Assembly (NCBI GenBank): GCA_963718875.1
Contig: OY970378.1
Coordinates: 872,265-936,264 of the forward strand
Length of the DNA: 64,000 nucleotides
Source: Candidatus Parcubacteria bacterium
GTDB lineage: Bacteria; Patescibacteriota; Saccharimonadia; UBA4664; JBIOIQ01
Reading direction: 5' to 3'
Of this stretch, positions 790-62,083 are shown in pieces. Every line of letters starts with the position of its first letter. Within the stretch, counting starts at the first letter, position 1. The translations under genes were made by a program, and so were the position numbers. The notes below the pieces were generated by a model. The model was not told the DNA's origin and did not search any database. It saw only the letters and a program-made list of their open reading frames with translations.

Positions 790-1401
790 TCACAAGCACC
801 TTAACATGAGCATTATAGCATTATACTTATGCTTAAATCAAGCGTGTTACTTGCTTTGTGCTTGTTCGGCTGATAGAAGTTATATGATTTGCGTACTGTG
901 CATATTATATTTTTGTAGAGCCATTATTCGCTTGCTAAGCATAATATAAAACATCTATTAAATAGCATCGTCGTGCGGCTACAACTTTGACATGCAGCTT
1001 TGCTCTCAGCCTGGAGACTTTTTTACATACGAGCAGAAGAAACTAAAGATTTTTACTATAAGGCGAAAGTCGACCTATTTAAGGCGCTTAATTTAGGTCG
1101 ATTATCGCCTTATATGGGCTGCTATTTAGCGTCAACACTCAGATCATAGTTTAAGAGATACTGAACCCGGTTCGACCCTTCGACTTCGCTCAGGGAATAA
1201 ATTCAAGCTTACGGTCTTCGACTCTGCCCATTCGACTTCTCTCAGGGCGCCCTGAGTTTCATCGAAGGGTGAGGGAAGAGCCCTCAGGCTCAGACTCGAA
1301 CGAGCAGGCAAGTTCAGTATGACAGACGAGGGGTTTAGGAATTTTTGCTTAGTAGGGTTAAAGCCCCTAAATGGTTCTTTTAATGACCTTTAAGAGGTAC
1401 G

Positions 1402-2412
1402 CTAGAAGCGCCGAGGAGGAGGCTTTGGAGACGAAGGTGGTTTTATAGATGCCGCAGATGGCGGTGGCTTAGGCTTAGATTTGGATTTGGATTTGCGCTG
1501 GCGGATAGCCAAAGCAGTGCAGACAATTGCCAAAAACGTAAAAGCGGTGACTACGATGATAAAAAAGAGAGAAGACATGATAAGGACATAGTGCGTTCCG
1601 AGATTTTCAGTGCGGCCCAGCATATTGACCGAGCCATAGACCCTAAACAGACCAAAAGAGGGAGCGCCCTTCCACTCTTGGCTAATCTTGCGGATTGTTT
1701 GCGGCAGCACCACGTGGCTGGTTTGCAGCTTGGCTTTAACGTTTCCAAATAAATCCGCTACGTATATGGAGGCGTCAGCTTGATAATGGACATTGCCCTC
1801 ATTGCTTAGACGAAGAGTAGTTTTGAGGGGTGGCTCGGTTTGCCAAAAGTCGGTTTTAAAACTTAGTAACCGTCCTTGCTCGTCTACCGCCCCGTTAACG
1901 CGCAGGTAAAGAATGGCGCCGACTCGCTTTTTACTAGCCACCCCGCTCGTGCCTTTAGGCTCCACCTTTGTTTCGGTAAAAATAACTGCGTAGTACCCTC
2001 CTGGGCCGACCCCGCTAGGCACAGAGATTTCGTATGGCACTGCCACATGCTTGCCGGGTTCTAGATGAAGTGGGACCTGGCTAGTTTTAATCCAACTAGC
2101 AACATTTGTTTGGGCGGGCTTGAGTTGAAAACTTTGAATATAGTCTTCCCCCGATACGTTATAGGGAGTGCTATATACCTTGAAGTCATAGGCTTCGGTT
2201 CCGTCGTTAATGAGAGTTAAGCTGCCACTGGCACTTTTACCCGCATCGAGCTCGTAGCGCAGGGAGGTAGGAGACATGGTCATGCTAAGACCCTGGGCGC
2301 CGGAGGACACTCCTGGAGTGGCGCCCAAAGCGCTACCCCCTGTTAGCAAAAAGTTAGCGGCTAAAGCAGCTTGAATAAATTTTTTTGTTGTAGCTGAGAA
2401 TAGTTTGTTCAA
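1402..2412 (-). CDS. DUF916/DUF3324-like (CscA-like) cell-surface protein with signal peptide, C-terminal TM helix and Lys/Pro-rich tail. The ORF runs to 2508 but the likely start is a TTG near 2412.
   Basis: Paralogous to 3083..3976, 6630..7553 and 14772..15932. Shared motifs ...EPGG[YHR][YF][AG]..F and ..GNVH.., then a C-terminal TM segment and basic tail (KSKSKSKPKPPP). Confidence 0.5.
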   Translation of the reverse strand: MNKLFSATTKKFIQAALAANFLLTGGSALGATPGVSSGAQGLSMTMSPTSLRYELDAGKSASGSLTLINDGTEAYDFKVYSTPYNVSGEDYIQSFQLKPAQTNVASWIKTSQVPLHLEPGKHVAVPYEISVPSGVGPGGYYAVIFTETKVEPKGTSGVASKKRVGAILYLRVNGAVDEQGRLLSFKTDFWQTEPPLKTTLRLSNEGNVHYQADASIYVADLFGNVKAKLQTSHVVLPQTIRKISQEWKGAPSFGLFRVYGSVNMLGRTENLGTHYVLIMSSLFFIIVVTAFTFLAIVCTALAIRQRKSKSKSKPKPPPSAASIKPPSSPKPPPRRF

Positions 2413-2426
2413 AGGCAAGACCAAAT

Positions 2427-3053
2427 TTAATTGGTTAGGGCGGTGTAGGTGACAATGTCGGTATAAGTTCCCTGCAAGACCGTGGCATTTGCCGCCACGC
2501 TGTACCAAACAGTAGTAACGTCGTTTGTACTGTTGGTAGAAGTTGTTTTGAGAGTGTTGGGTGATCCTGATGCCGGTACTCCTGCAAATGTGTCGGCAAC
2601 AAAGGCAGCGCTAGACTGCGAGCTGGTTGGGCCAGCTCCAAACCCGCCAGCTCCGTCCACTCTATACCCCCATCTACCTGAGGTTAGAGCAATGGGTGAT
2701 GCTTGAGTTCCGGTGGTGGCTGAAATGTTGTTGGAGCCTGAAACCAGGTTAGTATTGGCGTCAGCGTCTTCGAGTGTAAGGGTGTAGCCACTAATGTCGT
2801 TGGTACTTACCGTCACAGTATCGCTAGCAATGGTCTGGGCGCCGGCTACTGTAGGAAGAACATTTACATTTACTGTACCGCTGGTAGTAAACAGGCTAAT
2901 TATGGGGCTTATGACTGAACTAATAGTGGTATTGGCGCTAAAAACAGCCCCACTTAATACTGGGCTGATCATAATAAGCCCGCTTGCGACAATAGCTAGG
3001 CGTATCGGCTTAATATCTAGGAAGTGCATTTTTACCATAAGCTTTATAGACAT
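2427..3053 (-). CDS. Small secreted WxL-like protein. C-terminus ...GTYTDIVTYTALTN.
   Basis: Signal peptide MVKMHFLDIKPIRLAIVASGLIMISPVLSGAVFSA. S/T/G/A/N-rich body. C-terminal motif shared with four other proteins in the cluster. Confidence 0.5.
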   Translation of the reverse strand: MSIKLMVKMHFLDIKPIRLAIVASGLIMISPVLSGAVFSANTTISSVISPIISLFTTSGTVNVNVLPTVAGAQTIASDTVTVSTNDISGYTLTLEDADANTNLVSGSNNISATTGTQASPIALTSGRWGYRVDGAGGFGAGPTSSQSSAAFVADTFAGVPASGSPNTLKTTSTNSTNDVTTVWYSVAANATVLQGTYTDIVTYTALTN

Positions 3054-3082
3054 AATATACGCTGACTCCCAGAGAGTCAAAT

Positions 3083-3976
3083 CTAGCGCTTAAATCTAGG
3101 ACGGAGTCGACGGAATAAGACAGCAACTATGATAACTACTAGCATAAGTAGGCCCACTACTCTCCAATAGCCAGTTATTGCAAAAACTAGCGAAACATGA
3201 CTTTTGCCGGTATCTTTGTCAGTAACTAAAAGCGGAATAAGACCAACATAACTACCTGCCTTGGAAAAGCTGAATTCACGCTTGTTACCGGGAAAAACTA
3301 GTGGGCCGTTCAAGTAAGTGCGCCTACCCCACCAGGCTGCTCGGACAGATACAGTTGGGTTATAGGCAATTGCCCTAGGAGCCTCCCCCACGTTTGCATA
3401 TTGGATTGTTCCCTTTATGCCATTGCCAAACTGAAAAAAAGCCGACTTCAGGCTAGAAATTGTGCCACTTTTTTTACCTGCCCCGCCGTTATCAAGGATA
3501 AGTAACGTTCCGGCTTTGGCGCTCTGCATGATGATATTGCCACTAACTGATGTGGGCTTTGGGACGGTGGCAAAAAAAATCGCACCATAAACTCCACCTT
3601 TAGGCAGCTTGTTGGGATCGATTGTAAAAGCAACTCTTACGGCTTCACGTGGACCTAAGTCGAATTCTGAGGCCGACACTGTAATACCTCTACTTATTGC
3701 AGCATCCTGATAAAATTGCAGGTCCCCGGCTAAGTTTATTTGTCGAAAAGCGCTGACTTCACTTTTTAGTGAAATAGTAGAGTCGGATGGGTTAGAAACA
3801 TCAACAAACCCCAACTTTGAGGTAGACCCGGTTAAGCTATCTTGATATTTGAGAGGCGAGACTGAAATAGTGGGGATACTAGCGAACAGCGGTTGTGGCC
3901 GTATCAGCCCACAGAGGATCAAACTAAAAAACGCCGGGATTACTAAACCAAGCCGCAGGATAAGCAGGCGCTTCAT
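3083..3976 (-). CDS. DUF916/DUF3324-like (CscA-like) membrane-anchored surface protein
   Basis: Signal peptide, ...KGGVYGAIFFATVP... motif, C-terminal TM (VVGLLMLVVIIVAVLF) and basic tail RRLRPRFKR. A 4-nt ATGA overlap with the upstream gene indicates an operon. Confidence 0.5.
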   Translation of the reverse strand: MKRLLILRLGLVIPAFFSLILCGLIRPQPLFASIPTISVSPLKYQDSLTGSTSKLGFVDVSNPSDSTISLKSEVSAFRQINLAGDLQFYQDAAISRGITVSASEFDLGPREAVRVAFTIDPNKLPKGGVYGAIFFATVPKPTSVSGNIIMQSAKAGTLLILDNGGAGKKSGTISSLKSAFFQFGNGIKGTIQYANVGEAPRAIAYNPTVSVRAAWWGRRTYLNGPLVFPGNKREFSFSKAGSYVGLIPLLVTDKDTGKSHVSLVFAITGYWRVVGLLMLVVIIVAVLFRRLRPRFKR

Positions 3977-5334
3977 GGTTTGAGCGTGGCAGTGTAAACC
4001 ACGGAATTCGTATAAGTACCAGACTTTTGAGATGTGGCAGTGTCGGCTCGAAACCGAACTGAGCTTTTTTCTGGTACCCCACCATTAAGTCCAGTGCGGG
4101 AGTGAAATATGGTGGGAGTGGTTGGAATAAAGGCAAAGTTAAAATTGGGCGTACTCCCCCACTTGACTTCTACTTGAGTCCCACTTATAAGGCTAAATCC
4201 TAGGCCCTTGGTTGTTCCCTCATTCCAGGCTGCCGGCGTTGCGATGTTTGCTGTAACACCCGGAATAGTGGTGATTCCGTCAACGGTATGAAGCAAGTCG
4301 TGGTCCTCTTGAATATAGAGCGAATAGCCACCGGCGTCAGTGCGCACCACAGCGTCGGCATCATAAATTTGGGAGATTCCTGGTGTAATGTTTGGCACCG
4401 TAAAAGCACTAGAAGAACCGGCGGCAGCAGAAGAAAAATCATTTTCTATCTCGCGAGGACTTAATGCCCGGCTATATAATTTAACCTCATCAATAGTGCC
4501 TTTAAAAAAGTTGGCTAGGTCATCTCGAGCGCCTAGCTTTAAAGTGTTGGTGTTGGTGGTGGTGGTGCCTATTGACCCCGTGCCAACCGGCGAGCCATCG
4601 ATGTAGAGTGTGGCGCTACCACCAGATTTGGTTACTGCTATGTGCGCAAACGTCCCCGTCGGAACTGCAGAACTACTAGTGATAGTTCGTAAAGCCGTGT
4701 CAAATCCTAAAAACTGTAATTTACCTGTGGTCTGCTCAATGCGCAGCTCGTAAGTATTGTTGGCTGAGCCATTGCCGGTGGTTTTAGCGGCAATGGTGGC
4801 ATTGTTGGCATAGTCGGTAGGTTTAACCCAAGCCTCGATGGTGAGCGATCCGGTCAAGTTTAAATTGGCATTACTGGCAATATTGGTATATTGATTTGAC
4901 CCATTCAAACCCAGTCCTTGGCCCAACTTACCGCTAACCCAAGTGGGCGTCCCGCTGGAATAACCATGGTTTTCGTTGGTGCTAACGTCATAGGCCACCG
5001 TGCCAACTCCCGTATCTAAGGGGTAATACGAGACGGTCCCACTAGGCAACACCGCCAAAGTTATCGACTGAGAAAGCTGAGCCACGTAACCTTGCGTCAG
5101 TTTGTAACTTTGACTCGATCCGCTTCCTACAACCCCTTCTCCACCGGAGTCATAAAGTTTATACGAGGTTGAGGAACCGGCTCCGCCAAAGGTGCTTCCA
5201 ACATTAGGATCTAACCGATAATTTGGACTGGTTAATGAGGTGGCATGGCCTGTGATTGGCAATGCCAAGATAAGCATAACAAACCCGGCTATGTAACGTC
5301 GCACCTCTGTACTCGAATTAAGCATTACCAACAT
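3973..5334 (-). CDS. Secreted LamG/concanavalin A-like lectin domain protein with a WxL-like C-terminus (...GTYTNSVVYTATLKP). Start taken at internal ATG 5334; the ORF as listed runs to 5613.
   Basis: LamG_3-like motifs (LTIEAWVKP, TFAHIAVTKSGGSATLYIDGSPVG, FKGTIDEVKLYSRALSPREI). Signal peptide MLVMLNSSTEVRRYIAGFVMLILALPITGHA. The ORF portion upstream of 5334 overlaps the IS element. Confidence 0.6.
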   Translation of the reverse strand: MLVMLNSSTEVRRYIAGFVMLILALPITGHATSLTSPNYRLDPNVGSTFGGAGSSTSYKLYDSGGEGVVGSGSSQSYKLTQGYVAQLSQSITLAVLPSGTVSYYPLDTGVGTVAYDVSTNENHGYSSGTPTWVSGKLGQGLGLNGSNQYTNIASNANLNLTGSLTIEAWVKPTDYANNATIAAKTTGNGSANNTYELRIEQTTGKLQFLGFDTALRTITSSSAVPTGTFAHIAVTKSGGSATLYIDGSPVGTGSIGTTTTNTNTLKLGARDDLANFFKGTIDEVKLYSRALSPREIENDFSSAAAGSSSAFTVPNITPGISQIYDADAVVRTDAGGYSLYIQEDHDLLHTVDGITTIPGVTANIATPAAWNEGTTKGLGFSLISGTQVEVKWGSTPNFNFAFIPTTPTIFHSRTGLNGGVPEKSSVRFRADTATSQKSGTYTNSVVYTATLKP

Positions 5335-5375: not shown

Positions 5376-6254
5376 GGTTCTGTCCACTAAAACGGAACAG
5401 ACATACTTTTAAGTAATATAAATGGGCTACTGAACAACTCTGGGTGGTTCTTTCTAGCCTGGAACTCTCTGAGTAATCCCGGTAAGAACTGATGCATGAA
5501 GCGGTCGCGGGTACGTCTGGTAAACCGATCCAGGCAGCTCCAGATCCCTTCAATGCGGTTGGTTGGTCCAAAGTGGCCAATGGAATGGTTGCAGATCTCC
5601 AGACCATAGCCAACTTCCATTAGGCCAAGGTGAGAGGCGTGAGCATCAGCAAAGATCAGGCTACCGAGAGTGGCATACTGATCGAGAAAACCTTCTATGC
5701 TATCCTGCTCACAATCTAGTATCTCAGCTAGTCTTACGAGGTTGGTTTCCCGGTCCACGATACCCATAACAATGTGTTGGTTACCATATTTCTGCCGACC
5801 TAGATAGCTCTGGTCTATCTCCAGTAGCCCGACTAACTGGCTCTTGTCGACTGGTAGTCTAGATCGCAAGCGTTCTAACCAGCGTTGGATCGTCCAGTAG
5901 GACAGCCCCGTTGAGGTGATAATGTCGCCAGGTGACTGCTTACCGCTCCAGCAAGTCACCAGTTCCAGAATCCTCCTCCAGCCGAGCTTAGACGACCCAA
6001 AGCCGACTTGTTTCTTTAAGCTCCATTTACGACGACAGGTGCCGCACCAAAGATACTGAGTAGTTATGTGGATGTTTGAGTGAGACATCCAAGGGCAAAT
6101 AGGGCCCTCGGGATAAAGATGTACTAGCACTTGGTTAAAACATTCTTGGTCTGTTACCGGTAGATCTGCTAATGTGGTCATTGGAACAAGTCTCCTTTTC
6201 TAACTGGTTAGTCCTAGTTAGATTGTAGCTTGTTCCGCTTTAGTGTAATGAACC
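5376..6254. mobile_element. IS1595-family insertion sequence (879 bp) with ~25-bp imperfect terminal inverted repeats and a 9-bp direct repeat (GAAAGGGCG) at both flanks
   Basis: Left end GGTTCTGTCCACTAAAACGGAACAG. Right end, reverse-complemented, is GGTTCATTACACTAAAGCGGAACAAG. Flanking GAAAGGGCG at 5367-5375 and 6255-6263. Single transposase ORF inside. Confidence 0.75.
5387..6181 (-). CDS. IS1595-family (ISXO2-like) DDE transposase with N-terminal zinc-ribbon
   Basis: 264 aa. N-terminal CPWMSHSNIHITTQYLWCGTCRRKW zinc ribbon. Length and architecture typical of IS1595. Sits inside the inverted-repeat-bounded element. Confidence 0.75.
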   Translation of the reverse strand: MTTLADLPVTDQECFNQVLVHLYPEGPICPWMSHSNIHITTQYLWCGTCRRKWSLKKQVGFGSSKLGWRRILELVTCWSGKQSPGDIITSTGLSYWTIQRWLERLRSRLPVDKSQLVGLLEIDQSYLGRQKYGNQHIVMGIVDRETNLVRLAEILDCEQDSIEGFLDQYATLGSLIFADAHASHLGLMEVGYGLEICNHSIGHFGPTNRIEGIWSCLDRFTRRTRDRFMHQFLPGLLREFQARKNHPELFSSPFILLKSMSVPF

Positions 6255-7875: not shown

Positions 7876-8970
7876 TTAATAAATGGGGGTGCAGGTGTAG
7901 ATGACGGTGGTGGTGTAGGTGCCTGGTTTTGTAACACCAGAGATGCCAACTTGATGGCCGACGCGGGTGGTTTGTGAAGCTACCGGGGCGGCATCGTAGG
8001 CGACCTCTGCATTGCTGGTAGTGTTAGCCGCCCAGACATCAGGAGTGCTGGTAAAGCGGTTGACGGCTAAGGCTTGCAAGGTGGCGTCATTGGTAGTGTA
8101 GCCGTACGACTCTGTTCCGGCGGCTGAAAATGAGGTTGGTGCGGCGTTGGTTCCAGTGTGGTCAGCAATTTGATTAGCGCCCGAGGTGGGTTTAGCGGTA
8201 TAGCGTATGAATACCGTATACCCGCTGCCGGCGTTGGTGGCGACGCTTAAATCTTGGCAAACAATTGAATTAGAGGCCGTTGTTACGGTACCAAAGGGAA
8301 TGGTGGTAGACGTACTGGCCTGCGTCGATGTTGCCCCATTACAACTAGCTCCGGATGCGACCGTATTAACTGTAAAGCTTAATGTAGGGTCGACGGTTAA
8401 TGACAGGGTCGATCCTGGGGTGAAGATAAACGCTAGAGTTGTATTGTCTACGGGGCTAGTGGTGCAATCGACGTTGTCATAAGTACTAAACTGCATGAAG
8501 TAGCTAACGTTAGGGATGGAGCTGTTTACAACTCCGGCCAATACAAAAGTGGCGTTAGTGGTAGTAGACGGGGTGATGCCAGTGTTGTGGGTATAAGTTA
8601 TGTTATTGGCGGTTGGGGTTAGCGTCCAGCCAGTGCCAGAGCTATTAACTAAAGTTGATGATGCGGCGGTGACGGTGGCAGAGGCGGCGGTGAAGCCGTT
8701 GCCAATATTAACCGCTGAGCTTGGGCTGGTACTAAAAACAGCTTTAATACATTTAATACTGGCGCTGGTAACGTTGCTAGCTGTAGTCGTATAAGTAGAG
8801 GTGGCACTTGGACGAGGGTCGCTTAGAGCGACCGATGCAGGGTTTAGTTGAGCAGCATTAACAATTCCAAAGTTGAGCGACATCGTGCCCAACAAGGTAA
8901 CCCAAGCCATCCATAGTCTCATTAAACGGCCTTGTGAAGCAATGATTTTGATTTGACTATGTTTTTTCAA
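7876..8970 (-). CDS. Secreted WxL-like surface protein, C-terminus ...GTYTTTVIYTCTPIY
   Basis: Signal peptide, then conserved N-terminal segment ...ALSDPRPSATSTYTTTAS.... Thr/Ser/Ala/Asn-rich body. C-terminal motif shared with the 15934 and 17364 paralogs. Confidence 0.55.
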   Translation of the reverse strand: MKKHSQIKIIASQGRLMRLWMAWVTLLGTMSLNFGIVNAAQLNPASVALSDPRPSATSTYTTTASNVTSASIKCIKAVFSTSPSSAVNIGNGFTAASATVTAASSTLVNSSGTGWTLTPTANNITYTHNTGITPSTTTNATFVLAGVVNSSIPNVSYFMQFSTYDNVDCTTSPVDNTTLAFIFTPGSTLSLTVDPTLSFTVNTVASGASCNGATSTQASTSTTIPFGTVTTASNSIVCQDLSVATNAGSGYTVFIRYTAKPTSGANQIADHTGTNAAPTSFSAAGTESYGYTTNDATLQALAVNRFTSTPDVWAANTTSNAEVAYDAAPVASQTTRVGHQVGISGVTKPGTYTTTVIYTCTPIY

Positions 8971-9068: not shown

Positions 9069-10769
9069 CTACTTTTCATTAGACTCATCATCGGGAGTTT
9101 GAGATTCCTGATTTGGGGTTTTGCGCTTAGACCTGCCACGCCAATCGGTAATCATCAAGAATCCGCGCTGAGCCTTGGCAGTCCCGCTCCACACCCACCC
9201 CAGGGGCTTCCAAGCTGCAGCTTTACGCAGCCAGGCAATAAGGTGCGGCTCATGAGCTGTATGCGCAATCTGATGAGCTCCTTTTAGCCTTAGCCATTTT
9301 TCCCTACGCCAAGCTAAAAATAACACTACATTAATAATAGTTGCGACAATAAGCAGAACCACAACTAGCGGCAGCAGCAAGCGCTGGTACCAAGGAGGTG
9401 GAACTGGTTTTTTGAGTGCAGTGGCAGTAATAACTAATTTGAGGTCTGGCGATGGAGAACTTTCGGCGCCAACACTATTGACCCGACTAAAACGAATGGT
9501 GTAATTGCCTGGGAACAATTGCGGTTTATAAGTATATTCCCAAGTGATGCCATTGGCAAAGCCGCCGGCTCCTTTGTCTTTGGCCTTGGAAGCTTTTTTG
9601 TCTTTGGCTAAAAATTGTTCGAGCAGCTTACCATTTAAAAAGACTGATATGGTATCCCCTGCCTCCGACTGCCCAATATAGTTCATGGGTTGTAAAATAA
9701 CTAACGACGAAGGCCAAGTCAGTATCTTGGGAGGGGCAATGCCTGTAATTTCGAAGTCGGTTTTGGCTTCTTTTGTGTTACCGGCTTTGTCGTAGGCAGT
9801 TACTACAATGGTGTGTTTACCTGGGCGCTGTTTGGGGATGGCGTCGCCAGGATTTAAGGGAAAGGCTTCTCCATCATCAATTTTGGCTGTGTAGCGGTCG
9901 ATGCCAGAGATGCCGTCATTAGCTGTAAAACTTGCCTTGGGAGTAGGATTTGAAGCATTGCTGCCGTTGTCCATTTTGACGCTAAAATCATCTGGTGGGC
10001 TAGAATCTATATGAATATCAAAATGGACAGTGCTGCCACCGGTTTGATTAGAGCCTTTTAAATGGAAATACCAAGTCCCTTCATCTAGGTCGTATGAAGT
10101 ATTAATAGTGCCGTTATTGGGACTATTTGGAACGGTGCCTGGGTTACGGTCAACCGCAAATGAGTAATTACCAACGGCCGTTGTAGCAAACCAATTTAGC
10201 TCCACGCGGCGGCTGGTATACCATTGGTTTTCGTTGGGATGAGTTCTGGAGTTTACTGTCAGTAAGGGCACCGGGGGCTTAGGAGTGTTAACGGTAAAAG
10301 TGGCGCCACTGGAGCAGCACAATACATTTGTACCCATGCCATCATTGGCCAGTATTTGACTACCGGCCACATTGACGGTATACGTGCCTGGCGTGGTGGC
10401 ATTAAATATTACGGTCACAACGCGTCCGCCGCTGCCGTTGTAGCCAGGGTTAGACAGCCCACCCGAAAAATAAACTGACGAGCCTGAACCAACAGGCCCG
10501 GCACCTCCCCCACTGGCCCAAGTGGTAAATATTGAGCCCGAGGTAGAGGCAAATGAATATTGTAAGCCGGGGGTCCAGGTAACGGTGGCTTCACCAGCAT
10601 TAATAGCTTGGCCGCCTGAGTTAATCATTATACCCACGCGAATCACGTCGCCAACATTGTAGGCGCCAGAGGATGGTGAAGCGTAAAAGCTGGCGTTGGC
10701 GGCGGCACGGGCTGTGGGGGCCGGGATAAGGCTAGCCGATAAGGAAGAAACGAAAACGGCTAGTAGCAT
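9069..10769 (-). CDS. Large surface protein: signal peptide, N-terminal cohesin-like domain, Ig-like repeats, C-terminal TM helix and cytoplasmic tail. ORF runs to 10913; likely start at MLLAVFVSS.
   Basis: Cohesin-like segment GDVIRVGIMINSGGQAINAGEATVTWTPGLQYSF...GRVVTVIFNATTPGTYTV. TM LLLPLVVVLLIVATIINVVLFLAW near the C-terminus. Confidence 0.55.
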   Translation of the reverse strand: MLLAVFVSSLSASLIPAPTARAAANASFYASPSSGAYNVGDVIRVGIMINSGGQAINAGEATVTWTPGLQYSFASTSGSIFTTWASGGGAGPVGSGSSVYFSGGLSNPGYNGSGGRVVTVIFNATTPGTYTVNVAGSQILANDGMGTNVLCCSSGATFTVNTPKPPVPLLTVNSRTHPNENQWYTSRRVELNWFATTAVGNYSFAVDRNPGTVPNSPNNGTINTSYDLDEGTWYFHLKGSNQTGGSTVHFDIHIDSSPPDDFSVKMDNGSNASNPTPKASFTANDGISGIDRYTAKIDDGEAFPLNPGDAIPKQRPGKHTIVVTAYDKAGNTKEAKTDFEITGIAPPKILTWPSSLVILQPMNYIGQSEAGDTISVFLNGKLLEQFLAKDKKASKAKDKGAGGFANGITWEYTYKPQLFPGNYTIRFSRVNSVGAESSPSPDLKLVITATALKKPVPPPWYQRLLLPLVVVLLIVATIINVVLFLAWRREKWLRLKGAHQIAHTAHEPHLIAWLRKAAAWKPLGWVWSGTAKAQRGFLMITDWRGRSKRKTPNQESQTPDDESNEK

Positions 10770-10909
10770 AAATGAGCGACCCCACGACCTTCGCGCTTGA
10801 ATCCAGTTCAAGGAAGAACCGAGAACCACAGAGAGGCGTACCCGGAAGTACGCTGACCGAGGATCGCAGGCTCTGACGACGAAATGGGCCAAGCGAGTAG
10901 GTCGTAATG

Positions 10910-11627: not shown

Positions 11628-11701
11628 TTTTGGAGGTTCTTGGAGACAAAAGTGAGGGCAGTTCAGACACTTTTCTCGACAGAAATGATCCTTTTGTGAC
11701 A

Positions 11702-11749
11702 CGCTCCCGCCCACCCCAAGTGCTCAAAGTTTATTTTGAGCACTTGGGG
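11702..11749. repeat. Repeat element with a perfect 15-bp stem hairpin (CCCCAAGTGCTCAAA-GTTTAT-TTTGAGCACTTGGGG). Its first 27 bp (CGCTCCCGCCCACCCCAAG[T/C]GCTCAAA) recur at 12831-12858.
   Basis: Direct inspection. The two copies bracket a ~1.1 kb segment containing the high-GC ORF 12351..12800. Confidence 0.55.
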
Positions 11750-12097: not shown

Positions 12098-12350
12098 ACT
12101 GCAGTTCCTGCGAAATTGATCTGAAATCCAAGGATACACCTTGTGCGGTACCGATTTACGAAGTAACATCTTTTTGCATCACCCGAGGGACTAGTCTCTC
12201 AAAAGCGGTTGCTGTTGCACCGCCTTTTCTCAAGCTTTCAACCGACTGGTTGACGTCTTAAGAGAAGTTCCAGCACTTTTTATTGACGTATCCGATATTT
12301 TTATGCCATAATACTTTTGACCAAATTGCTCTCTCAAGGATGTCGACAAC

Positions 12351-12800
12351 ATGACCACAAGCACCTGGGTTGGATTCGACCGCGCCCTCGCCGTAGCACT
12401 GGAGCAGTACATCAAGCCGCAACTCTCCGTGAACTTCTTCGGCCCACTCTCAGTTGCCCAGCTGCTGGAGGCCGGTTACGGAGTGTACATCTCCGGCGAC
12501 CTCAAGGACACCAAGGTTCTCGTAGTCTACCAAGACGACGAGGGCAACACATGCGTTCGCCTCGGCAACCTCCTCGCAACCATCGCGGCAAACGTGATGT
12601 CCGCCCATGACACCAAGACCCTCGCTCAACCAGATGGCGATTGGGTCTGCGTTGGCGCCACCACGTTGACCCTCTGCTCTGCCTACGGCACCATCCCTGG
12701 CAGGGTCATCTACGTCCTCGATCAGGTCACGGATTTGGGAATTTCCGGCTTCGTCGCCGGCTACCGCGCCGGCCACTGGGATGGCGGGATCGTTCCCTAG
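12351..12800 (+). CDS. Hypothetical protein encoded in a high-GC island
   Basis: 149-aa ORF with GC-rich codons, in contrast to the flanking sequence. Many overlapping alternative-frame ORFs, typical of high GC. No recognisable domain. Confidence 0.45.
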   Translation: MTTSTWVGFDRALAVALEQYIKPQLSVNFFGPLSVAQLLEAGYGVYISGDLKDTKVLVVYQDDEGNTCVRLGNLLATIAANVMSAHDTKTLAQPDGDWVCVGATTLTLCSAYGTIPGRVIYVLDQVTDLGISGFVAGYRAGHWDGGIVP

Positions 12801-12830
12801 CTAGGCAATTTGGGCATGGGAGCGCTACTC

Positions 12831-12858
12831 GCGCTCCCGCCCACCCCAAGCGCTCAAA
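12831..12858. repeat. Second (truncated) copy of the 27-bp repeat GCGCTCCCGCCCACCCCAAGCGCTCAAA
   Basis: 26/27 identical to 11702-11728. The hairpin is only partly retained. Confidence 0.5.
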
Positions 12859-12895
12859 TATTTTTGAGAATTTAGGCTAGGATTAATAAGAGCTA

Positions 12896-19393: not shown

Positions 19394-19432
19394 ACTATCG
19401 CCGTAGCATCCCCTTCCGAGGGTGCTACGGCG
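19394..19432 (-). terminator. GC-rich hairpin (ATCGCCGTAGCA...TGCTACGGCGAT) immediately downstream of the high-GC ORF 19448..19897
   Basis: 12-bp perfect stem with extended pairing; A/T-rich after it on the minus strand. Confidence 0.5.
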
Positions 19433-19447
19433 ATGTTGGCGTCGCTC

Positions 19448-19897
19448 TCAGACGGTGCGAACGACGGTGCGCTGCGTGCAGTGCTTGACGCCCCGCGCGA
19501 AGGCGCGGGTGTGGAGGATGCTGACCTCGTCGCCGACCAGCAGGAGCTGGTTGGTCATTGCGTGGGCGCTCCCGTCCGCGGGCGCAGCCACATTGGCCGG
19601 AATGACCACCCCGTAGATCCGGTGGTAGCGGTCGAGGTCGGTCTGCGAGATGTAGTGGTCGCCACCGTGCGTGCGGTGATGCTCCACGCCCTTGCCGATC
19701 ATGGCCAGGGTTCCTCGCGCGAGGGCCTCGTTGCAGGGAACGCCGGCTGCCCGGCACTCCTGGATGTACTTGGCGACGACTTGTCCCTCGGTCGGCTTGA
19801 CCGGCGGCTGATCACCGGGGGGTAGGACGGCTCGGACGGCAGCGGTGACGTTGCCGACAGCTGAGGCAACACGCTGTCGGCGTGTAGTCGTACTCAT
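19448..19897 (-). CDS. Hypothetical protein in a high-GC island
   Basis: 149-aa ORF in a ~65% GC segment with many overlapping alternative-frame ORFs. No confident domain assignment. Confidence 0.4.
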   Translation of the reverse strand: MSTTTRRQRVASAVGNVTAAVRAVLPPGDQPPVKPTEGQVVAKYIQECRAAGVPCNEALARGTLAMIGKGVEHHRTHGGDHYISQTDLDRYHRIYGVVIPANVAAPADGSAHAMTNQLLLVGDEVSILHTRAFARGVKHCTQRTVVRTV

Positions 19898-20134
19898 TCT
19901 TGGACCATCTCCTTGTCGGACCCGCTCAGGATGATGCGAGTAAGGTTACTATATGCCCGCTTGTTCGAGAAAGTCAACAGTTGTTTATGCCGAAAAAAAC
20001 GTCTTTCTGTATCTATCACAGAGTAGGACAAATAAATTACTTATGAAAAAGAGGGCTACACGTAAAAAAGAGTTGTGTTGATACTTATTTTAAAAGAAAA
20101 TTTTTGTTTTTTGTACCTAGGGCCACATACAGGT

Positions 20135-32154: not shown

Positions 32155-32298
32155 ATAAACCCCTACTACCCCCTTAAAGTTTTGTAGGTGGATATTATAG
32201 CGATATGCGGGGCAAAAGTAAAGATTGTGACCGGAGACTGATTACTTATTTAAATAGAGAACCCCGAAAAAACTCGGTGTTCTCTCGGGGCGTGAACT

Positions 32299-32550
32299 TT
32301 AGCCCAGCATCCAGGCGACCTGTCGGCGCATCTGGCGCTTAGGGATGATTTCTTCCAAGTCGCAGAGCAGCATCAGGTGGAGGGTGTCGTTGACGTGGCG
32401 ACGAACCTGCCGCTCGAGCTGCTTACGCAAGGGCTTGGCGTTGCGGCCGAAAGAGTTCCAGCCGCCGTAGTGGAGCAGGGTACCAGAGCGGTTGCTACGG
32501 CGATCCGCCAGCAGGACTCTGTGGGGGTCGGTGTTGACGGTTCGGGACAT
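32299..32550 (-). CDS. Hypothetical Arg-rich protein in a short high-GC island
   Basis: 83-aa ORF. The segment 32285-32560 is markedly GC-richer than its flanks. Confidence 0.3.
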   Translation of the reverse strand: MSRTVNTDPHRVLLADRRSNRSGTLLHYGGWNSFGRNAKPLRKQLERQVRRHVNDTLHLMLLCDLEEIIPKRQMRRQVAWMLG

Positions 32551-32872
32551 GCGGACCTTCCTTTGCTGCTTACTTAGCAGCTATGAAGTCGCACATATAT
32601 CACCTCCAAAAGTCGATGAACTATAACTACACATTTATAACACATAACTACTTTAATTACAAACCGCGATACTTCTGGGCTATCATCCTATCCCCCCTTG
32701 TCATTCCCTATCGGAAGCGGAGCGCTCCGGATAGGGAATCTAAAAAAAATAAAAGAGAAGTGTAAAAATCTTTTATCGGCTATATGCATCAGCCAAACTT
32801 CCCACTACGAAGCTAAATTTGAAGCTGCGCTAAAAACTCATTATACTTATGCTGAAAATAAGCGGAGTCGTA

Positions 32873-33124: not shown

Positions 33125-33631
33125 ATGAAAAAGTTGATCATAGTTTGCGGATTGCCAGGAGCTGGCAAAAGTACCCTGTCAGAGGCTTTGGCAGGTAGAT
33201 TGATGCTACCGGTATTTTCAGTCGACCCAATCGAGTCGTCAATTATCAAAAGTGGTATTAAAAAAAGTTTTGAAACCGGTTTAGCTGCCTATCTTGTAGC
33301 CGAAACGTTGGCTGGTGAGCAGCTAAAGCAAGGCTTATAGGTCATTATAGATTCTGTCAGTGCTGTGCCAGAAGCCAAAGACATGTGGCGCAAACTGTCG
33401 GCAAAGTATGATGCGAAGTTGGTAATTATAGAATGCGTTTTGGACGAAACTATCCACAAACAACGCGTTAAGGCTCGCGTCCGCAACATGCATGGCCTGC
33501 CGGAAGTTATCTGGAGTGATGTTGAGGCGCGAAAGAGCGAGTATGTGGAGTGGGAGCAGGAAAAATTGGTTTTGGATAGCGGGAACGGGCTTGAGGAAAA
33601 CTTAGAAAAAGCGCTAGAGTATATCAACTAG
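33125..33631 (+). pseudogene. P-loop kinase (AAA_33/zeta-toxin-like fold) interrupted by an in-frame TAG at 33338-33340
   Basis: GLPGAGKST Walker A. ORFs 33125..33340 and 33365..33631 are in the same frame, and the second continues VIIDSVSAVPEAKDMW...VIIECVLDE as expected for a single kinase. TAG is a genuine stop elsewhere (uppS ends in TAG). Confidence 0.5.
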
Positions 33632-34356: not shown

Positions 34357-34542
34357 ATGATTTGGGCAATGGAAGACGTAGAAGACAAAAAGCGCCAGGC
34401 GTGTTTAGAAAAGCTTACTTGGGAATCTAAAGAAATGGCGGAGGCTGCCCGGGCATATGCCGGTTGGCAGTATGGTGAGTCCAAAACCCTTGCCTACCCG
34501 TGCAAGCATTGTGGCAAGTGGCGTTTGGCCCGAGCAGTTTAG
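34357..34542 (+). CDS. Hypothetical small protein with a CxxC pair
   Basis: 61 aa, ...YPCKHCGKW.... Low support. Confidence 0.25.
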   Translation: MIWAMEDVEDKKRQACLEKLTWESKEMAEAARAYAGWQYGESKTLAYPCKHCGKWRLARAV

Positions 34543-34599: not shown

Positions 34600-35900
34600 A
34601 CGAGCGGGCCATGCGGTTAATTGAAATGTGATCTTAGGAAAGCTGATAGAGCGTTTGCCCCTCATATCCGTAGTCTTTTAGGAGGTGTCTGAAACCGAAC
34701 TGCTGCGCGGCCCGGTTGGCGTCCTCTAGGTCAGGCGAACTTGAGGCAACGTCTCATCCAGCCTCTGGACCTCCTCTCGATAGCTAGGCCCGGGCATCTT
34801 TAGGCGCTTTTCAGCGGACATATATTCCAGGATCGCGAGACTGCCTGGGAGTGTTGTATGTCGTTCAATGATACGCTGCGACCACCATCTGTTGGGTGAT
34901 CGTCACGGTTCGGCTAGCTCCGGCATGCCTGAAATTGGGCCAGTAGTGCCGAACCTCGTTGACCTTAGCGTGATTCGGATGGCCTTTTCGAAGGCTCCGG
35001 TGGCCTCGAGGCTTTGCGCCGGATGAGCTGGCGACTTCAGCGGGTGGCAGAAAGCCAAAACGAGAGCATATCGCCACGAAACCAATCTGGGCCAGACGGT
35101 TGCTCGAACCGTCATGTAGAGGTGCCTGCTGTGAGAGTCCGCCAGACCATTGGGAAGCGTAGCTGTTATGGCCCCATTATTAAGCTCTTTAAAAACTTAA
35201 GCGGACACAAATTGTCTGGGATGGGTCGTAGCAGTCCCCCGTCACACAACATCAGTCTGGTGTACTGGTTCAAGCTGAGCAGATAGGTCACGTACGCTCA
35301 CATGCTTTGATCCAGTCCGCGTTGGTCCGGTCGTAGAGCGATGATCTCCTTGTTTCTGAGTTGTGGCAGCTCCGCTCCGGACCAAAGGTTGACTGTCTTC
35401 GCGGCGCCCTGTAAAACTCACCGATCTGGAATCATCACCCGATCGGTCTTAGGTTTGCGCTTCTTTGGTCTGCACATCGGGAGAAGACAGGTACGCGTCG
35501 AGGCCGTACATCTGCCCCCGGGCGCTGTCGCGCAAGGTGCGTATTGACGTTGCGAGCATAGCCGAGCTGGTAGTAAAGGAATTGGTAGGCGCTTTTTTTA
35601 CGTCGTCCCACTATCTCATCGGGATTGGAGGCCATCGAGTTGAGGCCTGAGCACAATGATGTACCAGAATCGACCAATTATCGAAATCACCTGGTCGATT
35701 TCTGGCTGACCAGCTTAGCCGATTTCTAGAGTTTGAAGCTGTTTGTTGAGCGATTCAAGCGCTCGCTCCAGCATTCCGAGCCTTTCGGGATCAACATTCG
35801 GGCCTCGAACGTTGACAACTACTTGGGCGTCCGGCCCAACAGCCCGACCATGTACCTCGCTTGTGACTTTTGATGAGTTCGAAAACACATAGTACTATTT
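34600..35900. other. High-GC degraded segment with no intact ORF: only 60-90-aa fragments in all six frames
   Basis: GC-rich by eye relative to flanks. Fragmented ORFs 34865..35077, 34903..35115, 35014..35286, 35341..35547, 35435..35677. Likely relic of an acquired gene or element, identity not determinable by eye. Confidence 0.4.
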
Positions 35901-37233: not shown

Positions 37234-37325
37234 AACGGATATATAGCTACAAATTGTTATAAAGCCACTTAACATCCTGATCTGGTTGTATTATTTTAGC
37301 TATACACCTACAAGGAGGCTGCCTT

Positions 37326-37936
37326 GCAGTTAATCCCCGTCATTGTTTGTGCAGTTGTGATGGCGGCCTGTTCGGCGCCAACCCAGTCAACCGATCCCCC
37401 GAGTGCACCGACGCCTGGTAGTGAGTTAGCTACCACCAGCACACTTCCCAGCTACGAAGTCCTTGGAACCGGCGGATGATCTGCCGGAATCCGTGCTTTC
37501 TGCAGAATCTGGAAGTGCTTGCCTCGGCCTATCCGACCGGCGCCTAGAAGTGTGCACTGCCTATGTGTTCAACTCTTCATTAGCGGCCAGGCTGCCATAC
37601 TACAAATATGGTCGCAGCCCTAACTCTGCTCGGTCCAAAGCCGCCTTGGACCGGCTGGAGTCACGCTATAGCGGTTCCGCACTTGCCCAAATTCAAGCCC
37701 AGGTGAGGGGGTGGCCTGTCGGCGAAACCAACATTGACGTGCCAATAGTTCGCGTTGAAAGCCTTTCAGTGAGTACCGACGGCAACCAGGCAGTTCTAAC
37801 AACGCGAGAGAGTTGGGAGGTCAAGAGGGCAGGCGAAACGCTGCTGTTTAAGGAGCAAGGCGCCAGGCACGTGATCAAGCTGGAGAGAGTACCCGGCCTG
37901 GTGTTGCATAAGTGGGTGGTGACAGAGATCGCATAA
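37326..37936 (+). CDS. Putative lipoprotein, possibly one gene split by a frameshift between 37430 and 37480 (TTG-start lipobox segment plus ORF 37463..37936). Lies in a high-GC island.
   Basis: Frame 1 encodes LQLIPVIVCAVVMAACSAP... (lipobox AAC) up to the TGA at 37478. The overlapping frame opens at 37430 and continues for 157 aa. Confidence 0.35.
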
Positions 37937-38114
37937 GGTTGAAGGGGCGAGTTTACCGCCCCTTCAACCCCCGACTTTTGATAAATACAGCTACTTATCG
38001 TGCGAGCCCCAATTTGATTATGAGCAGTAAAAGTTAAAGCTCCATCCCGCTTAACGCGGGATGGAGCAGAATGCAACCCTTGGTTGCATAGGATGTAGAT
38101 TGGTTAGCCGTCCC

Positions 38115-38969
38115 CTACCCTTCGAGAGGCTTACGGCCAACAATCAAACCTCGGCCGTTGTTACCAATGCCTCCTTCCTCGAACCTAGCGATAAGCCCGG
38201 CGTCCTCGAAAGCCGGCCGGAACTCGGTGTGCCAGTCGAACATGGTGAGGTCATGAAGCTCGATGAAGTGCTCAGTTCCCTCGGGCCGAGCAACCAGGTG
38301 CTCGAGCTCCAGATGGATGACCTTGCCCGTTTTGGTGGAACGGCTAATGCGGACAACTTTCAGATCGGTCTGGTCCACCACCTGCATGCTGACATGGCCC
38401 GACCGCCACATGTGCGGCGACAGCCAAGGCTCAACGATCAACAAGCCGCCCGGAGCCACATGCCGAGCCATGTTGGTAATGGCGGCCGGAAGTTGTTCGG
38501 CCGAAAGGTGGCCAATGGCGCTGAACAAGCAGGTGACCACGTCGTACTGGCGGCCCAGGGTAAAGGTCACCATGTCGGCCAGGTAGAGCTGGATGCCGCG
38601 GCCGTAGCTGAGGCGGCCGGCACCGTGCTGAAGCTGGTCGAGATTCTGAGTGAAATTGCCATCAAGGCTGGTCCACAGTCCGGTCTCCACCTCTCTTGCG
38701 ATGGCGCCGCTGCGGTGGAAACGCTCCCAGGCTATCTGCAGCTGCGCTTCGCTGATGTCTAGCCCTTCCACCCGGAAGTGGTTGCGCAGGTGCTCCAGGT
38801 GCAAGCCAGTGCCGCAAGCTACGTCGAGCAGGCTGGGGACCTGATAGCGACGGTCAAACGATTGCAGTCGGGCCATGATGATGGCGTGCAGACGCTCAGA
38901 TTCACGACGATAATCTTTCATAGCCGTGTAAATGGCATCGTAAATCGATGCTGATTGTTCGTAGGACAC
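38115..38969 (-). CDS. Class I SAM-dependent methyltransferase (TylM1/DesVI-like motif I)
   Basis: LDVACGTGLHLEHL motif I. YDVVTCLFSAIGHL, GGLLIVEPW. Embedded in a high-GC island. Confidence 0.75.
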   Translation of the reverse strand: MSYEQSASIYDAIYTAMKDYRRESERLHAIIMARLQSFDRRYQVPSLLDVACGTGLHLEHLRNHFRVEGLDISEAQLQIAWERFHRSGAIAREVETGLWTSLDGNFTQNLDQLQHGAGRLSYGRGIQLYLADMVTFTLGRQYDVVTCLFSAIGHLSAEQLPAAITNMARHVAPGGLLIVEPWLSPHMWRSGHVSMQVVDQTDLKVVRISRSTKTGKVIHLELEHLVARPEGTEHFIELHDLTMFDWHTEFRPAFEDAGLIARFEEGGIGNNGRGLIVGRKPLEG

Positions 38970-39242
38970 AACGGTCCTTTCTGTGGTTGGGGTATTACCC
39001 CGGGATGGTCCCGGTGATAAACTTCTAAGCTTTAGAGGCTTGTCACCGGGACCCTACTTATATGTATCTAACATATGGGTTCCTTTATTTAGAACTTTGT
39101 AAGATTAGCATAAGTACCAAACTATGTCAATTATTGGTCGGCTGACTGACTAGTTATAGTCGGGCCAGCCTGGTGGCATAGGCAACGCCTTGCCGAACAT
39201 TAAGCCCGACTGCGGGTATGCTAACGCCCGAGGAGTAGGGCT

Positions 39243-59656: not shown

Positions 59657-59731
59657 TGGCTGGGGAAGTAGGATTCGAACCTACGATCTCCTGAGCCAGA
59701 ATCAGGCGCCTTACCGCTTGGCCATTCCCCA
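59657..59731 (-). tRNA. tRNA-Gln (anticodon CUG), CCA encoded
   Basis: TGGGGAA-TG-GCC-AAGCGGTAA-GGC-G-CCTGA-TTCTGGC-TCAGG-AGATC-GTAGG-TTCGAAT-CCTAC-TTCCCCA-G-CCA. Near-identical to E. coli tRNA-Gln in the D-arm and anticodon loop. U1-A72 pair. Confidence 0.9.
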
Positions 59732-60988: not shown

Positions 60989-62083
60989 ATGAGCATAATG
61001 GTGGATGGTTTGGCCCCGCGTGGAGCAGTCTTTACTCCTACTTTGAAGTCGGCAAGGCTGCCGCTTGGCCAAGCCCTTAGTGAAAAAACTTTGCGACCAC
61101 TTTTACTAGATTTGCGCCCTCCTCAAACACCAATTCAGGCGGCTGTAGCAGAGACTGTTTGGCCTAGCGCACCAGCAGCCGCACTTCCTATCCCCGCCCG
61201 CAAACCGCTGTCGGGGCTAGCGTGGGTATTAGCGGGCGGAGTTAGTGCGGCAATTCTTGGGAGTACGGTGATAAGTGCGGCTAAAGCCATTAATTCACCC
61301 GTTCAAGCAAAAGTGGCGCCAGCGGCAGCTGTTGCGACCACACCTGCACCGACGGCTGCGGCTCAAGCTCCAGCGCCAGTTTTTAGCGTCACTTCGGCCC
61401 AGATACAATCGTTGTTAAATGACTTTGCTGCTAGCGCTGGCTCGCCAGTTTATTTGGCGGTAAAAGATCTTAAGACTGGCCAGGGTGCGGCGGTAGCATC
61501 AGACCAAACTATTACCAGCGCCAGCTTATACAAGCTGTTTGTTGCCCATGGCATATACACTTTGGTCGACTCAGGCAAATTAAATTTTTCGAGCATAGTT
61601 CCAGGAACAGGCAGCAACGTTAGTAATTGTTTGAAAGCTATGATTACGGTTTCGGATAATGCTTGCGGCGAAGCCATGGAAGGCATGCTTGGAGATAGCC
61701 GATATAATCCAACGCTGGCTCAGTATGGATTTACACATACTCGATTTGATTACCCCACCGTTACAAGCGCTAATGACGTTGCTATTTTACTTGAGCGGTT
61801 GTACAACTCAACTCTGTTGAGCCCTAATGCAACCCAATATTTTACTGATCTCTTAAAGTCTCAGCGCGTCAATAATCGCCTACCTCAAGGCCTACCGGCT
61901 GGAACAACTATTGCCCATAAAACTGGAGATGTGTTTGGGCTCGTACATGATGCGGGGATTGTTTATGGGCCAAAAACTGATTATGTGGTGGTTATGATGA
62001 GTGGACCTTGGAAAAATACAGGGGCTGCGCCGGCTAAATTTGCTGAGCTTTCCAGCAAGCTTTATACACTGTTTAATCAATAA
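60989..62083 (+). CDS. Class A beta-lactamase-like serine hydrolase, membrane-anchored with a Pro/Ala-rich N-terminal region
   Basis: SxxK (SASLYK), SDN (VSDNACGEA) and KTG (HKTGDVFG) motifs in the correct order. TM LAWVLAGGVSAAILGSTVI. Confidence 0.75.
   Translation: MSIMVDGLAPRGAVFTPTLKSARLPLGQALSEKTLRPLLLDLRPPQTPIQAAVAETVWPSAPAAALPIPARKPLSGLAWVLAGGVSAAILGSTVISAAKAINSPVQAKVAPAAAVATTPAPTAAAQAPAPVFSVTSAQIQSLLNDFAASAGSPVYLAVKDLKTGQGAAVASDQTITSASLYKLFVAHGIYTLVDSGKLNFSSIVPGTGSNVSNCLKAMITVSDNACGEAMEGMLGDSRYNPTLAQYGFTHTRFDYPTVTSANDVAILLERLYNSTLLSPNATQYFTDLLKSQRVNNRLPQGLPAGTTIAHKTGDVFGLVHDAGIVYGPKTDYVVVMMSGPWKNTGAAPAKFAELSSKLYTLFNQ

Follow-up and report, generated by a model that had tools for sequence, protein, structure and literature searches.

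Lawrence-Ochman genomic islets and ORFans combine a sharp shift in GC content and codon usage with accessory or orphan genes and with intact units lying amid decaying fragments. The same combination is found in the DNA analysed here, a 64,000-nt stretch of contig OY970378.1 (assembly GCA_963718875.1, forward-strand positions 872,265–936,264; hereafter the window), which carries five short GC-rich islands, numbered 1 to 5, in surroundings with a mean GC content of 46.2%. Unlike the classical islets, these islands show no integrase, tRNA or direct repeats, the slot of the island of primary interest (island 1, a gene at 12351..12800 (+)) is filled in relatives, and no donor was found. The islands are compositionally foreign, self-contained single-gene islets in variable slots between conserved genes. 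The account that we favor, to which we give about half of our confidence, is that they were acquired laterally from high-GC donors, island 1 by allelic replacement and probably from high-GC Saccharimonadales.

Three other described systems come close. Replacement-type flexible genomic islands resemble island 1 in that the flanking genes, the 5′ untranslated region (UTR) and the terminator are conserved in three genomes, and the enclosed open reading frame (ORF) is 30–37% identical and differs in composition; unlike those multi-gene clusters, island 1 is a single 450-bp gene, for which we infer, rather than observe, recombination. Enzymes such as TylM1, DesVI and CalS10, which are deoxythymidine diphosphate (dTDP)-aminosugar N,N-dimethyltransferases, share with the predicted product of island 5 the class I S-adenosylmethionine (SAM) fold, the LDVACGTG motif and end-to-end sequence similarity. 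The window enzyme differs from them by a ~45-aa insertion, by the lack of deoxysugar or glycosyltransferase neighbours and by standing alone as a monocistronic cassette headed by a structured leader. Gene transfer from host to epibiont in Saccharibacteria, on which published guesses at hosts have been based (PMC11659515), concerns the same phylum and a compositional signal toward a high-GC source, but actinobacterial best matches are absent here and the nearest relatives of two islands lie in Saccharibacteria-like contexts. The phenomenon is familiar in kind, and the new details are a hypervariable slot within a conserved bracket and systematic gene calls on the wrong strand.

Five GC-rich islands with foreign codon usage

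Log-odds (maximal-scoring) segmentation of the GC content of the window called segments at 12361–12853 (island 1, 62% GC), 19399–19930 (island 2, 67%), 32275–32557 (island 3, 63%), 34695–35570 (island 4, 57%) and 37362–38895 (island 5, 58%). The five GC-rich intervals of the initial annotation, made from the sequence alone, were recovered within tens of bases, except for the core of island 4, which ended at 35570 instead of 35900. Four segments scored 44, 40, 26 and 16, compared to shuffled maxima with a mean of 10.4 and a largest value of 15.6 (100 block shuffles). At an equal threshold, 1.28 Mb of related Saccharibacteria loci contained 0.55 comparable islands per 64 kb versus 4 in the window.

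The GC fractions at the first, second and third codon positions (GC1/GC2/GC3) were 0.61/0.44/0.78 in the island 1 gene, 0.71/0.50/0.82 in the island 2 gene, 0.63/0.42/0.82 in the island 3 gene and 0.65/0.41/0.72 in the methyltransferase gene of island 5. The resident ORFs (n = 44) had a mean GC3 of 0.444 with a standard deviation (SD) of 0.054 and a maximum of 0.56, which placed the four island genes 5.2–7.0 SD above them. The GC3-rich codons reported in the initial annotation were therefore borne out (0.72–0.82 versus 0.444), and the spurious overlapping ORFs that it described in other frames were found as well. The codon-position pattern in the annotated frames is that of genuine genes of a high-GC genome.

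The window is chromosomal DNA of Saccharibacteria. It encodes cytochrome bo3 oxidase subunits (cyoAB), UbiA (heme O synthase), UppS, transporters and numerous secreted immunoglobulin (Ig)-domain proteins, and a CyoA-anchored scan yielded 80 related loci with a top identity of 74%, nearly all of them bearing Candidatus Saccharibacteria or Saccharimonadales in their titles. The cyo operon, ubiA, uppS and these 80 loci showed that the epibiont lineage guessed in the initial annotation was right at the phylum level. The record bearing the methyltransferase is a contig of 1,189,924 bp.

A hypervariable gene in a conserved slot

The island 1 gene (12351..12800 (+)) codes for 149 aa at 61% GC. Like islands 2 and 3, island 1 forms one compact transcription unit: a σ70-like promoter in the AT-rich flank (12283..12312 (+); TTGACG, 18 nt, TG-extended CATAAT), a ribosome-binding site ahead of the ORF, and a post-ORF element (12805..12870 (+)) that combines the 3′ arm GCAATTTGGGCA of an inverted bracket with a double GC-rich hairpin terminator module. 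The post-ORF element was 89% identical to the copy in L087, a 5.3-kb contig of an NCBI metagenome-assembled genome, and was also kept in a second related contig, L088.

In both the window and L088, the ORF lies within the bracket of 9–12 nt, with CCAAATTGC in the 5′ UTR and GCAATTTGG past the stop codon. Its 5′ arm in the window is TGACCAAATTGC (12318..12329 (+)), the core of which, CCAAATTGC, is found 5′ of the L088 ortholog too; the arms at 12318–12329 and 12805–12816 have their counterparts at ~113–124 and 601–612 of L088, and the 3′ arm is present in L087 as well. The inverted bracket could pair the 5′ and 3′ ends of the mRNA or act as a recombination site. The hairpin-2 portion of the post-ORF element recurs upstream at 11700..11745 (+), where it has a perfect 17-bp stem; the 19-mer CGCTCCCGCCCACCCCAAG is present in two exact copies in the window. 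The GC-rich terminator module centred on CGCTCCCGCCCACCCCAAG...CTCAAA is found at 11700–11745 and 12831–12870, 1.13 kb apart, and again at 2830–2880 of L087 and 625–680 of L088. The conservation of this module (89%) exceeds that of the adjoining coding DNA (75%).

Among 5.8 billion proteins searched by word index, none matched the 12351–12800 product, and a scan of JGI metagenomes for the island 1 family was empty as well. Exhaustive HMMER comparison with 1.84 billion cluster representatives returned two full-length relatives only, P0129 (147 aa, 37% identity, E = 3e-20) on L087 and P0135 (151 aa, E = 5e-4) on L088, the identity of the full-length homologs being 30–37%; all other matches were partial and confined to repeat domains. 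L087 is syntenic with the window at island 1, its 5′ flank being masked with N. Its Big_13 gene is 75% identical to that of the window over 1281 nt and 75% identical at the protein level, the following gene shows 70% protein identity, and the island 1 homolog comes next. The 80 nt 3′ of the stop codon of the homolog are 89% identical to 12803–12881 of the window, and the end of the contig matches the next conserved gene of the window at 13945. L088 carries the same flanks up- and downstream of P0135. The window, L087 and L088 thus present, at the same position, a divergent insert between flanks of 75–89% DNA identity, as replacement-type slots do. An actinobacterial best match had been expected for this gene; instead, both full-length homologs lie in the syntenic slot of related Saccharibacteria, so that the best matches fall within the lineage of the window, the outcome that the initial annotation itself had named as contradicting its proposal.

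The genes that flank island 1 have diverged to saturation at synonymous sites between the window and L087 (dS of at least 2.7), with a nonsynonymous divergence (dN) of 0.19–0.22. The island 1 orthologs reached a dN of 0.62–0.70, about three times that of the flanking genes. Their GC3 was 0.78 in the window, 0.69 in L087 and 0.51 in L088, and the Gly/Ala/Arg/Pro (GARP) fraction was lowest in the window copy, which indicates that the GC difference is synonymous and not driven by amino-acid content. By sequence comparison, the island 1 gene is assigned to a three-member, fast-evolving family so far found in only one slot of related genomes. Un-ameliorated import by a common ancestor is excluded for island 1, since such divergence would have erased the GC signal; either repeated allele replacement across the conserved flanks or active upkeep of GC3 remains.

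Regarding an integron cassette or an invertible element, no integrase or recombinase was found in the neighbouring ORFs, and the islands are dispersed and form no array. Sequence and profile searches of PDB with island 1 gave borderline Ig/FN3-like matches only (E = 0.005–0.17), and the AlphaFold models of the island 1 and island 2 proteins, with a predicted local distance difference test (pLDDT) score of 46, were unusable. As a hypervariable gene in a conserved slot next to large Ig-domain surface proteins, island 1 is a candidate locus for host-interaction variability.

A methyltransferase cassette with its own promoter and leader

The main gene of island 5, METHYLTRANSFERASE (38115..38969 (−)), encodes a predicted SAM-dependent methyltransferase of 284 aa in the TylM1/DesVI/CalS10 family. 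The protein matched Pfam Methyltransf_25, _23, _11 and _12 and, over its full length, PDB entries 6m83, 3pfg, 3bxo, 6uk5 and 5bsz (E of 2e-40 to 9e-33), and its LDVACGTG motif aligned with TylM1; these family matches and the motif confirmed the TylM1/DesVI-like identity proposed earlier. The top PDB matches fell into two stretches split by the ~45-aa insertion (residues 84–127), which is shared with the closest relative, P0002, and missing in five further aligned homologs (P0003, P0005, P0007, P0013 and P0029).

The gene is preceded by a promoter and leader (38970..39131 (−)) with an AT-rich promoter read from the sequence as TTGACA, 17 nt, TGc-TAATCT, and is followed by a terminator hairpin (38039..38067 (−)) of 12 pairs, 9 of them G–C, with a T tail. 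P0002, encoded on contig L081, is 76% identical, and the DNA identity between L081 and the window from the promoter through the stop codon is 73%. The AT-rich promoter and the ~110-nt structured leader are kept in L081, and the leader hairpin at 39007–39053 shows 4 compensatory pair changes between the two copies. The leader may be a cis-regulatory RNA. In the comparison of the two sequences (38970–39105 (−) of the window and 360–503 of L081), no Rfam family was matched, a permissive scan included.

Relative to L081, the methyltransferase has a dN of 0.14 and a dS of ~1.6, and the resulting dN/dS of ~0.09 shows that it is under purifying selection and therefore a functional gene. The four-fold GC3 of both copies is 0.71–0.73. 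The next homologs, at 46–52% identity, lie on contigs that are uniformly 63–64% GC; at least one of these contigs, L084, carries the kinds of genes expected of a larger genome. Matches on actinomycete plasmids reached 33–36% identity only, although 28 of the 30 plasmid records matched were from Actinomycetota. Here, too, an actinobacterial best match had been predicted, but the relative at 76% identity on L081 shares promoter, leader and insertion with the window, far ahead of the actinomycete plasmids. The neighbours of the window gene (ABC-transporter genes, hypothetical ORFs and a lipoprotein-like gene with a frameshift) include no dTDP-aminosugar or glycosyltransferase genes. A remote high-GC ancestry of the methyltransferase family, possibly actinobacterial, is plausible, and the cassette has travelled with an AT-rich σ70-type promoter.

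In L081, the region 5′ of the cassette (1–330) contains two short GC-rich ORF ends that share the C-terminal sequence NQAAQQ[FL]G. A GC-rich hairpin follows each of them, and a tiny hydrophobic ORF separates the two.

Islands 2 and 3 and gene calls on the wrong strand

The island 2 gene (19448..19897 (−)) codes for 149 aa at 68% GC and is preceded by an AAGGAG ribosome-binding site and a σ70-like promoter (19948..19977 (−); TTGACT, 18 nt, TATAGT). A GC-rich, terminator-like hairpin of 15 bp (19397..19434 (−)) stands directly past its stop codon. The island 3 gene (32299..32550 (−)) codes for 83 aa at 62% GC, has a ribosome-binding site and is followed by an intrinsic-terminator-like hairpin (32261..32291 (−)) of 13 pairs with a T tail.

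The public gene calls at islands 1–3, established by exact look-ups, are ORFs on the opposite strand, at 12450–12776 (−), 19433–19825 (+) and 32377–32577 (+) (P0137–P0139), and exact look-up in a 15-billion-protein collection showed that the sense ORFs are absent from it. The sense ORFs are real genes and the public calls are their antisense shadows: the sense frames show GC2 < GC1 < GC3, an ATG with a ribosome-binding site, terminators in matching orientation and greater length, and are further supported by promoter-like sites at islands 1 and 2 and by homologs at island 1. Because standard gene callers place islands 1–3 on the wrong strand, protein databases are blind to such genes in mid-GC genomes, and protein-level transfer surveys under-count this gene class.

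The island 2 protein had no homolog in the 5.8-billion-protein collection or in JGI metagenomes, and neither the island 2 nor the island 3 protein had one in IMG/VR, INPHARED phages, PLSDB plasmids, Pfam, NCBIfam, PHROGs, PADLOC or PDB. The actinobacterial best match expected for 19448..19897 did not materialize, since no collection that we tried held a homolog of it, and the same was true of 32299..32550. Because gene calls in high-GC genomes can be trusted, the missing actinobacterial homologs of islands 2 and 3 are the stronger evidence, and the missing Saccharibacterial ones are weak evidence.

A phage, plasmid or defence origin was likewise considered and dropped: scans of the island proteins by tblastn against INPHARED and PLSDB and against PHROGs, PADLOC and IMG/VR were empty, apart from a generic methyltransferase-domain match and one non-significant match of 27 residues. 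No search supported a suspected likeness of island 3 to small basic actinophage proteins.

Gene gain and decay between 32 and 39 kb

Island 4 (34695..35900) is ~1.2 kb of DNA at 53–57% GC in a genome that is compact elsewhere. It contains no ORF longer than 90 aa, and its period-3 signal is weak and shifts in phase. It had no Pfam, Rfam (permissive scan included) or BLAST match, and folded no better than shuffled sequences (z = −1.35 and −0.33). Island 4 is probably a decayed imported sequence. Its first 31 nt (34695–34725) match L081:1–31 at 90% identity, which loosely ties islands 4 and 5 together.

At the left edge of island 4, a 61-aa ORF (34357–34542 (+)) with a CxxC zinc-ribbon-like pattern gave weak PHROG matches (E = 0.005), a hint that the neighbourhood includes mobile-element remnants.

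Within island 5, a split lipoprotein-like gene (37324..37936 (+)) has an AAGGAGG ribosome-binding site, a GC content of 56% and a GC3 of 0.60. Its signal peptide with a VMAAC lipobox-like motif (37324–37479) is out of frame with its body (37463–37936). This frameshift and the lack of an ORF longer than 90 aa in 34695–35900 substantiated the decayed or frameshifted fragments of the initial annotation. A gene of ordinary GC content for an AAA_33/zeta-toxin-like P-loop kinase (33125–33631 (+)) has an in-frame stop at codon 72 that is spanned by its Pfam AAA_33 match, and is either a pseudogene or a readthrough gene. With this interrupted kinase gene beside islands 3–5, the 32–39-kb region is a zone of gene gain and decay.

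Origin of the islands

The foreign composition, the anatomy of the units, the conserved slot and flanks of island 1, its fast protein divergence and the constraint on the methyltransferase have been demonstrated above. In the reading that we favor, the accessory genes would have been acquired laterally and would have kept the codon usage of ~60–68% GC genomes. Islands 1, 2 and 3 and the methyltransferase would be intact and, judging from their sequence signals, expressed from signals of their own; island 4 and the frameshifted lipoprotein-like gene would be decaying imports, decay being the usual fate of imported DNA. Island 1 would represent slot-specific allelic replacement in a Saccharibacteria-restricted family found at one and the same position of three or more related genomes, where the ORF alone differs (in 63–70% of residues, with GC3 of 0.51, 0.69 and 0.78) between the conserved 5′ UTR and the double-hairpin terminator. 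Its alleles would have been swapped by homologous recombination across the conserved flanks. The Saccharibacteria phylum is known for DNA uptake. The GC-rich allele would most likely have come from a high-GC relative within the phylum, and the methyltransferase cassette, with its AT-rich σ70-type promoter and leader, would fit the same route. We lean to intra-phylum exchange for islands 1 and 5 because of the Saccharibacteria-restricted family in its conserved slot and the promoter borne by the cassette. Beyond these observations lie our inferences on the donors and the direction of transfer, on recombination as the mechanism and on what the small proteins do. If the islets truly mark gene flow, they would offer clues to the partners of this Saccharibacterium and to accessory-gene renewal in ultra-small epibionts.

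High-GC candidate donors exist within the phylum. Among the 80 loci, GC-rich Saccharimonadales include L061 (60.2% GC, with gene GC3 of 0.73–0.85), L064 (58.7%) and L034 (56.3%). The synonymous-codon likelihood of the island genes was −0.98 to −1.18 per codon under high-GC models and −1.19 to −1.27 under the model of resident genes, and was similar whether the models came from L061, L064 and L034 or from L082, L084 and L086. Since high-GC relatives within the phylum match the islands just as well, GC content alone does not point to an actinobacterial host as the donor. The cyoA-related Saccharimonadales as a whole range from 34.5 to 60% GC, and L061 and many of the mid-GC relatives come from one study.

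Several observations weigh against lateral acquisition from such donors. Codon usage, tried as a means of telling Saccharibacterial from other high-GC donors, had no resolving power. The third positions on the sense strand of islands 1–3 are 54–58% C and 19–29% G, whichever DNA strand carries the gene, and those of the candidate donors, at 36–48% C and 30–35% G, are less C-skewed. No donor sequence was found, the best homolog of island 1 being 37% identical and islands 2 and 3 having none. No island has mobility genes, a neighbouring tRNA, or target-site or boundary direct repeats. No relative showed an empty site: the island 1 slot is filled in L087 and L088, and none of the available relatives was syntenic at islands 2–5. 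In the syntenic empty-site comparison with the 80 cyoA-anchored relatives, synteny was not kept beyond the cyo operon. The high GC3 of island 1 and of the methyltransferase in two lineages at near-saturated dS could, finally, mean that the composition is actively maintained.

The islands could instead have come directly from a high-GC actinobacterial host, its phages or its plasmids, for example by uptake of host DNA, which was the source put forward in the initial annotation and which we regard as unlikely. The recipient is a Saccharibacterium, and the cultivated members of that group have Actinobacteria as hosts (PMC11659515). The codon usage of the islands fits genomes of 63–64% GC, the orphan state of islands 2 and 3 would be in keeping with phage or accessory DNA, and the contig with a methyltransferase homolog of 46% identity carries genes for MDMPI/DinB, TetR and XFP, as a large high-GC genome typically does. 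Within the methyltransferase family, the structures solved are those of deoxysugar N,N-dimethyltransferases, TylM1 and DesVI among them; these enzymes come from actinomycetes, and the strong share of Actinomycetota among the matching plasmid records points the same way. Against these stands the lack of any actinobacterial homolog of island 1 among the 1.84 billion representative proteins, where its homologs are Saccharibacteria with the same slot. For islands 2 and 3, no homolog from actinobacteria, phages or plasmids turned up, an absence made weighty by reliable gene calling at high GC, and the actinomycete matches of the methyltransferase stay at 33–36% when a relative at 76% has the same AT-rich σ70-type promoter. 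Of the proposed actinobacterial donors, then, the foreign high-GC codon usage and the Saccharibacterial recipient stood and the actinobacterial best matches did not.

Alternatively, the islands may be long-standing residents whose synonymous sites are held C- or GC-rich by strong translational or mRNA-level selection on small genes with high expression or by GC-biased gene conversion at slots prone to recombination, which also seems improbable to us. The counterparts of similar architecture keep their GC3 at near-saturated dS (0.69–0.78 for island 1 and 0.72 for the methyltransferase), and the sense-strand C bias at third positions exceeds that of any candidate donor. Promoters close to the consensus, together with strong ribosome-binding sites and terminators, would also agree with maintenance, as would AT-rich promoters and leaders next to GC-rich ORFs. 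However, the 35-point excess in GC3 is too large, far exceeding typical expression-linked codon bias, the GC3 of the L088 ortholog is an ordinary 0.51, and codon selection cannot uphold GC-rich pseudogenes such as island 4 and the frameshifted lipoprotein gene, which it leaves unexplained next to the intact units. As for native high-expression codon bias, the window and the related loci contain no ribosomal, EF-Tu, GroEL or DnaK gene.

Somewhat further down the scale, and very unlikely in our estimate, the islands would be native hypervariable small Saccharibacterial genes between a conserved AT-rich promoter and 5′ UTR and a conserved terminator, with a GC3 driven to ~0.8 and rich in C. GC-biased conversion in slots that are hot for recombination might drive this, or else selection to match a high-GC actinobacterial host, the latter if, for example, the transcripts or proteins have a role inside the host or at its surface. 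That the islands are assembly chimeras or high-GC contaminant reads spliced into the contig, as a metagenome-type assembly and the shortness of the islands might suggest, has next to negligible probability, given that the island edges coincide with complete transcription units, that single contigs of independent Logan assemblies of ERR12037361 repeat the orders ABC-ABC2-ORF-methyltransferase-ORF and uppS-island 2-ubiA-GNAT-cyoA, with both junctions of islands 5 and 2, and that the island 1 slot with its flanks recurs in two assemblies of other samples.

Other GC peaks and mobile elements

Common repeats or a mobile-element architecture joining the islands were looked for and not found, and islands 1 and 2 are not related to one another. 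A single mobility gene was detected in the window (5387–6181 (−)); it encodes an IS1595-family (ISXO2-like) transposase domain, lies ~6 kb from island 1 and adjoins no island.

Structured RNA was rejected as a source of the high GC content, as a whole-window Rfam scan at the gathering threshold gave a single tRNA (59657–59731). The GC peaks at 7956–8246, 10412–10904 and 61114–61377 were set apart from the islands as Ala/Pro/Gly-rich segments in which GC1 and GC2 equal or exceed GC3. Five GC peaks in the related locus L004, the one seeming cluster of islands among the related loci, were similarly discarded as a parallel case, being Gly-X-Y collagen-like repeats of one 1439-aa protein; in this gene (957–5276 (−)), collagen-like tracts (GATGATGP...) alternate with repeated globular modules and give rise to false GC islands.

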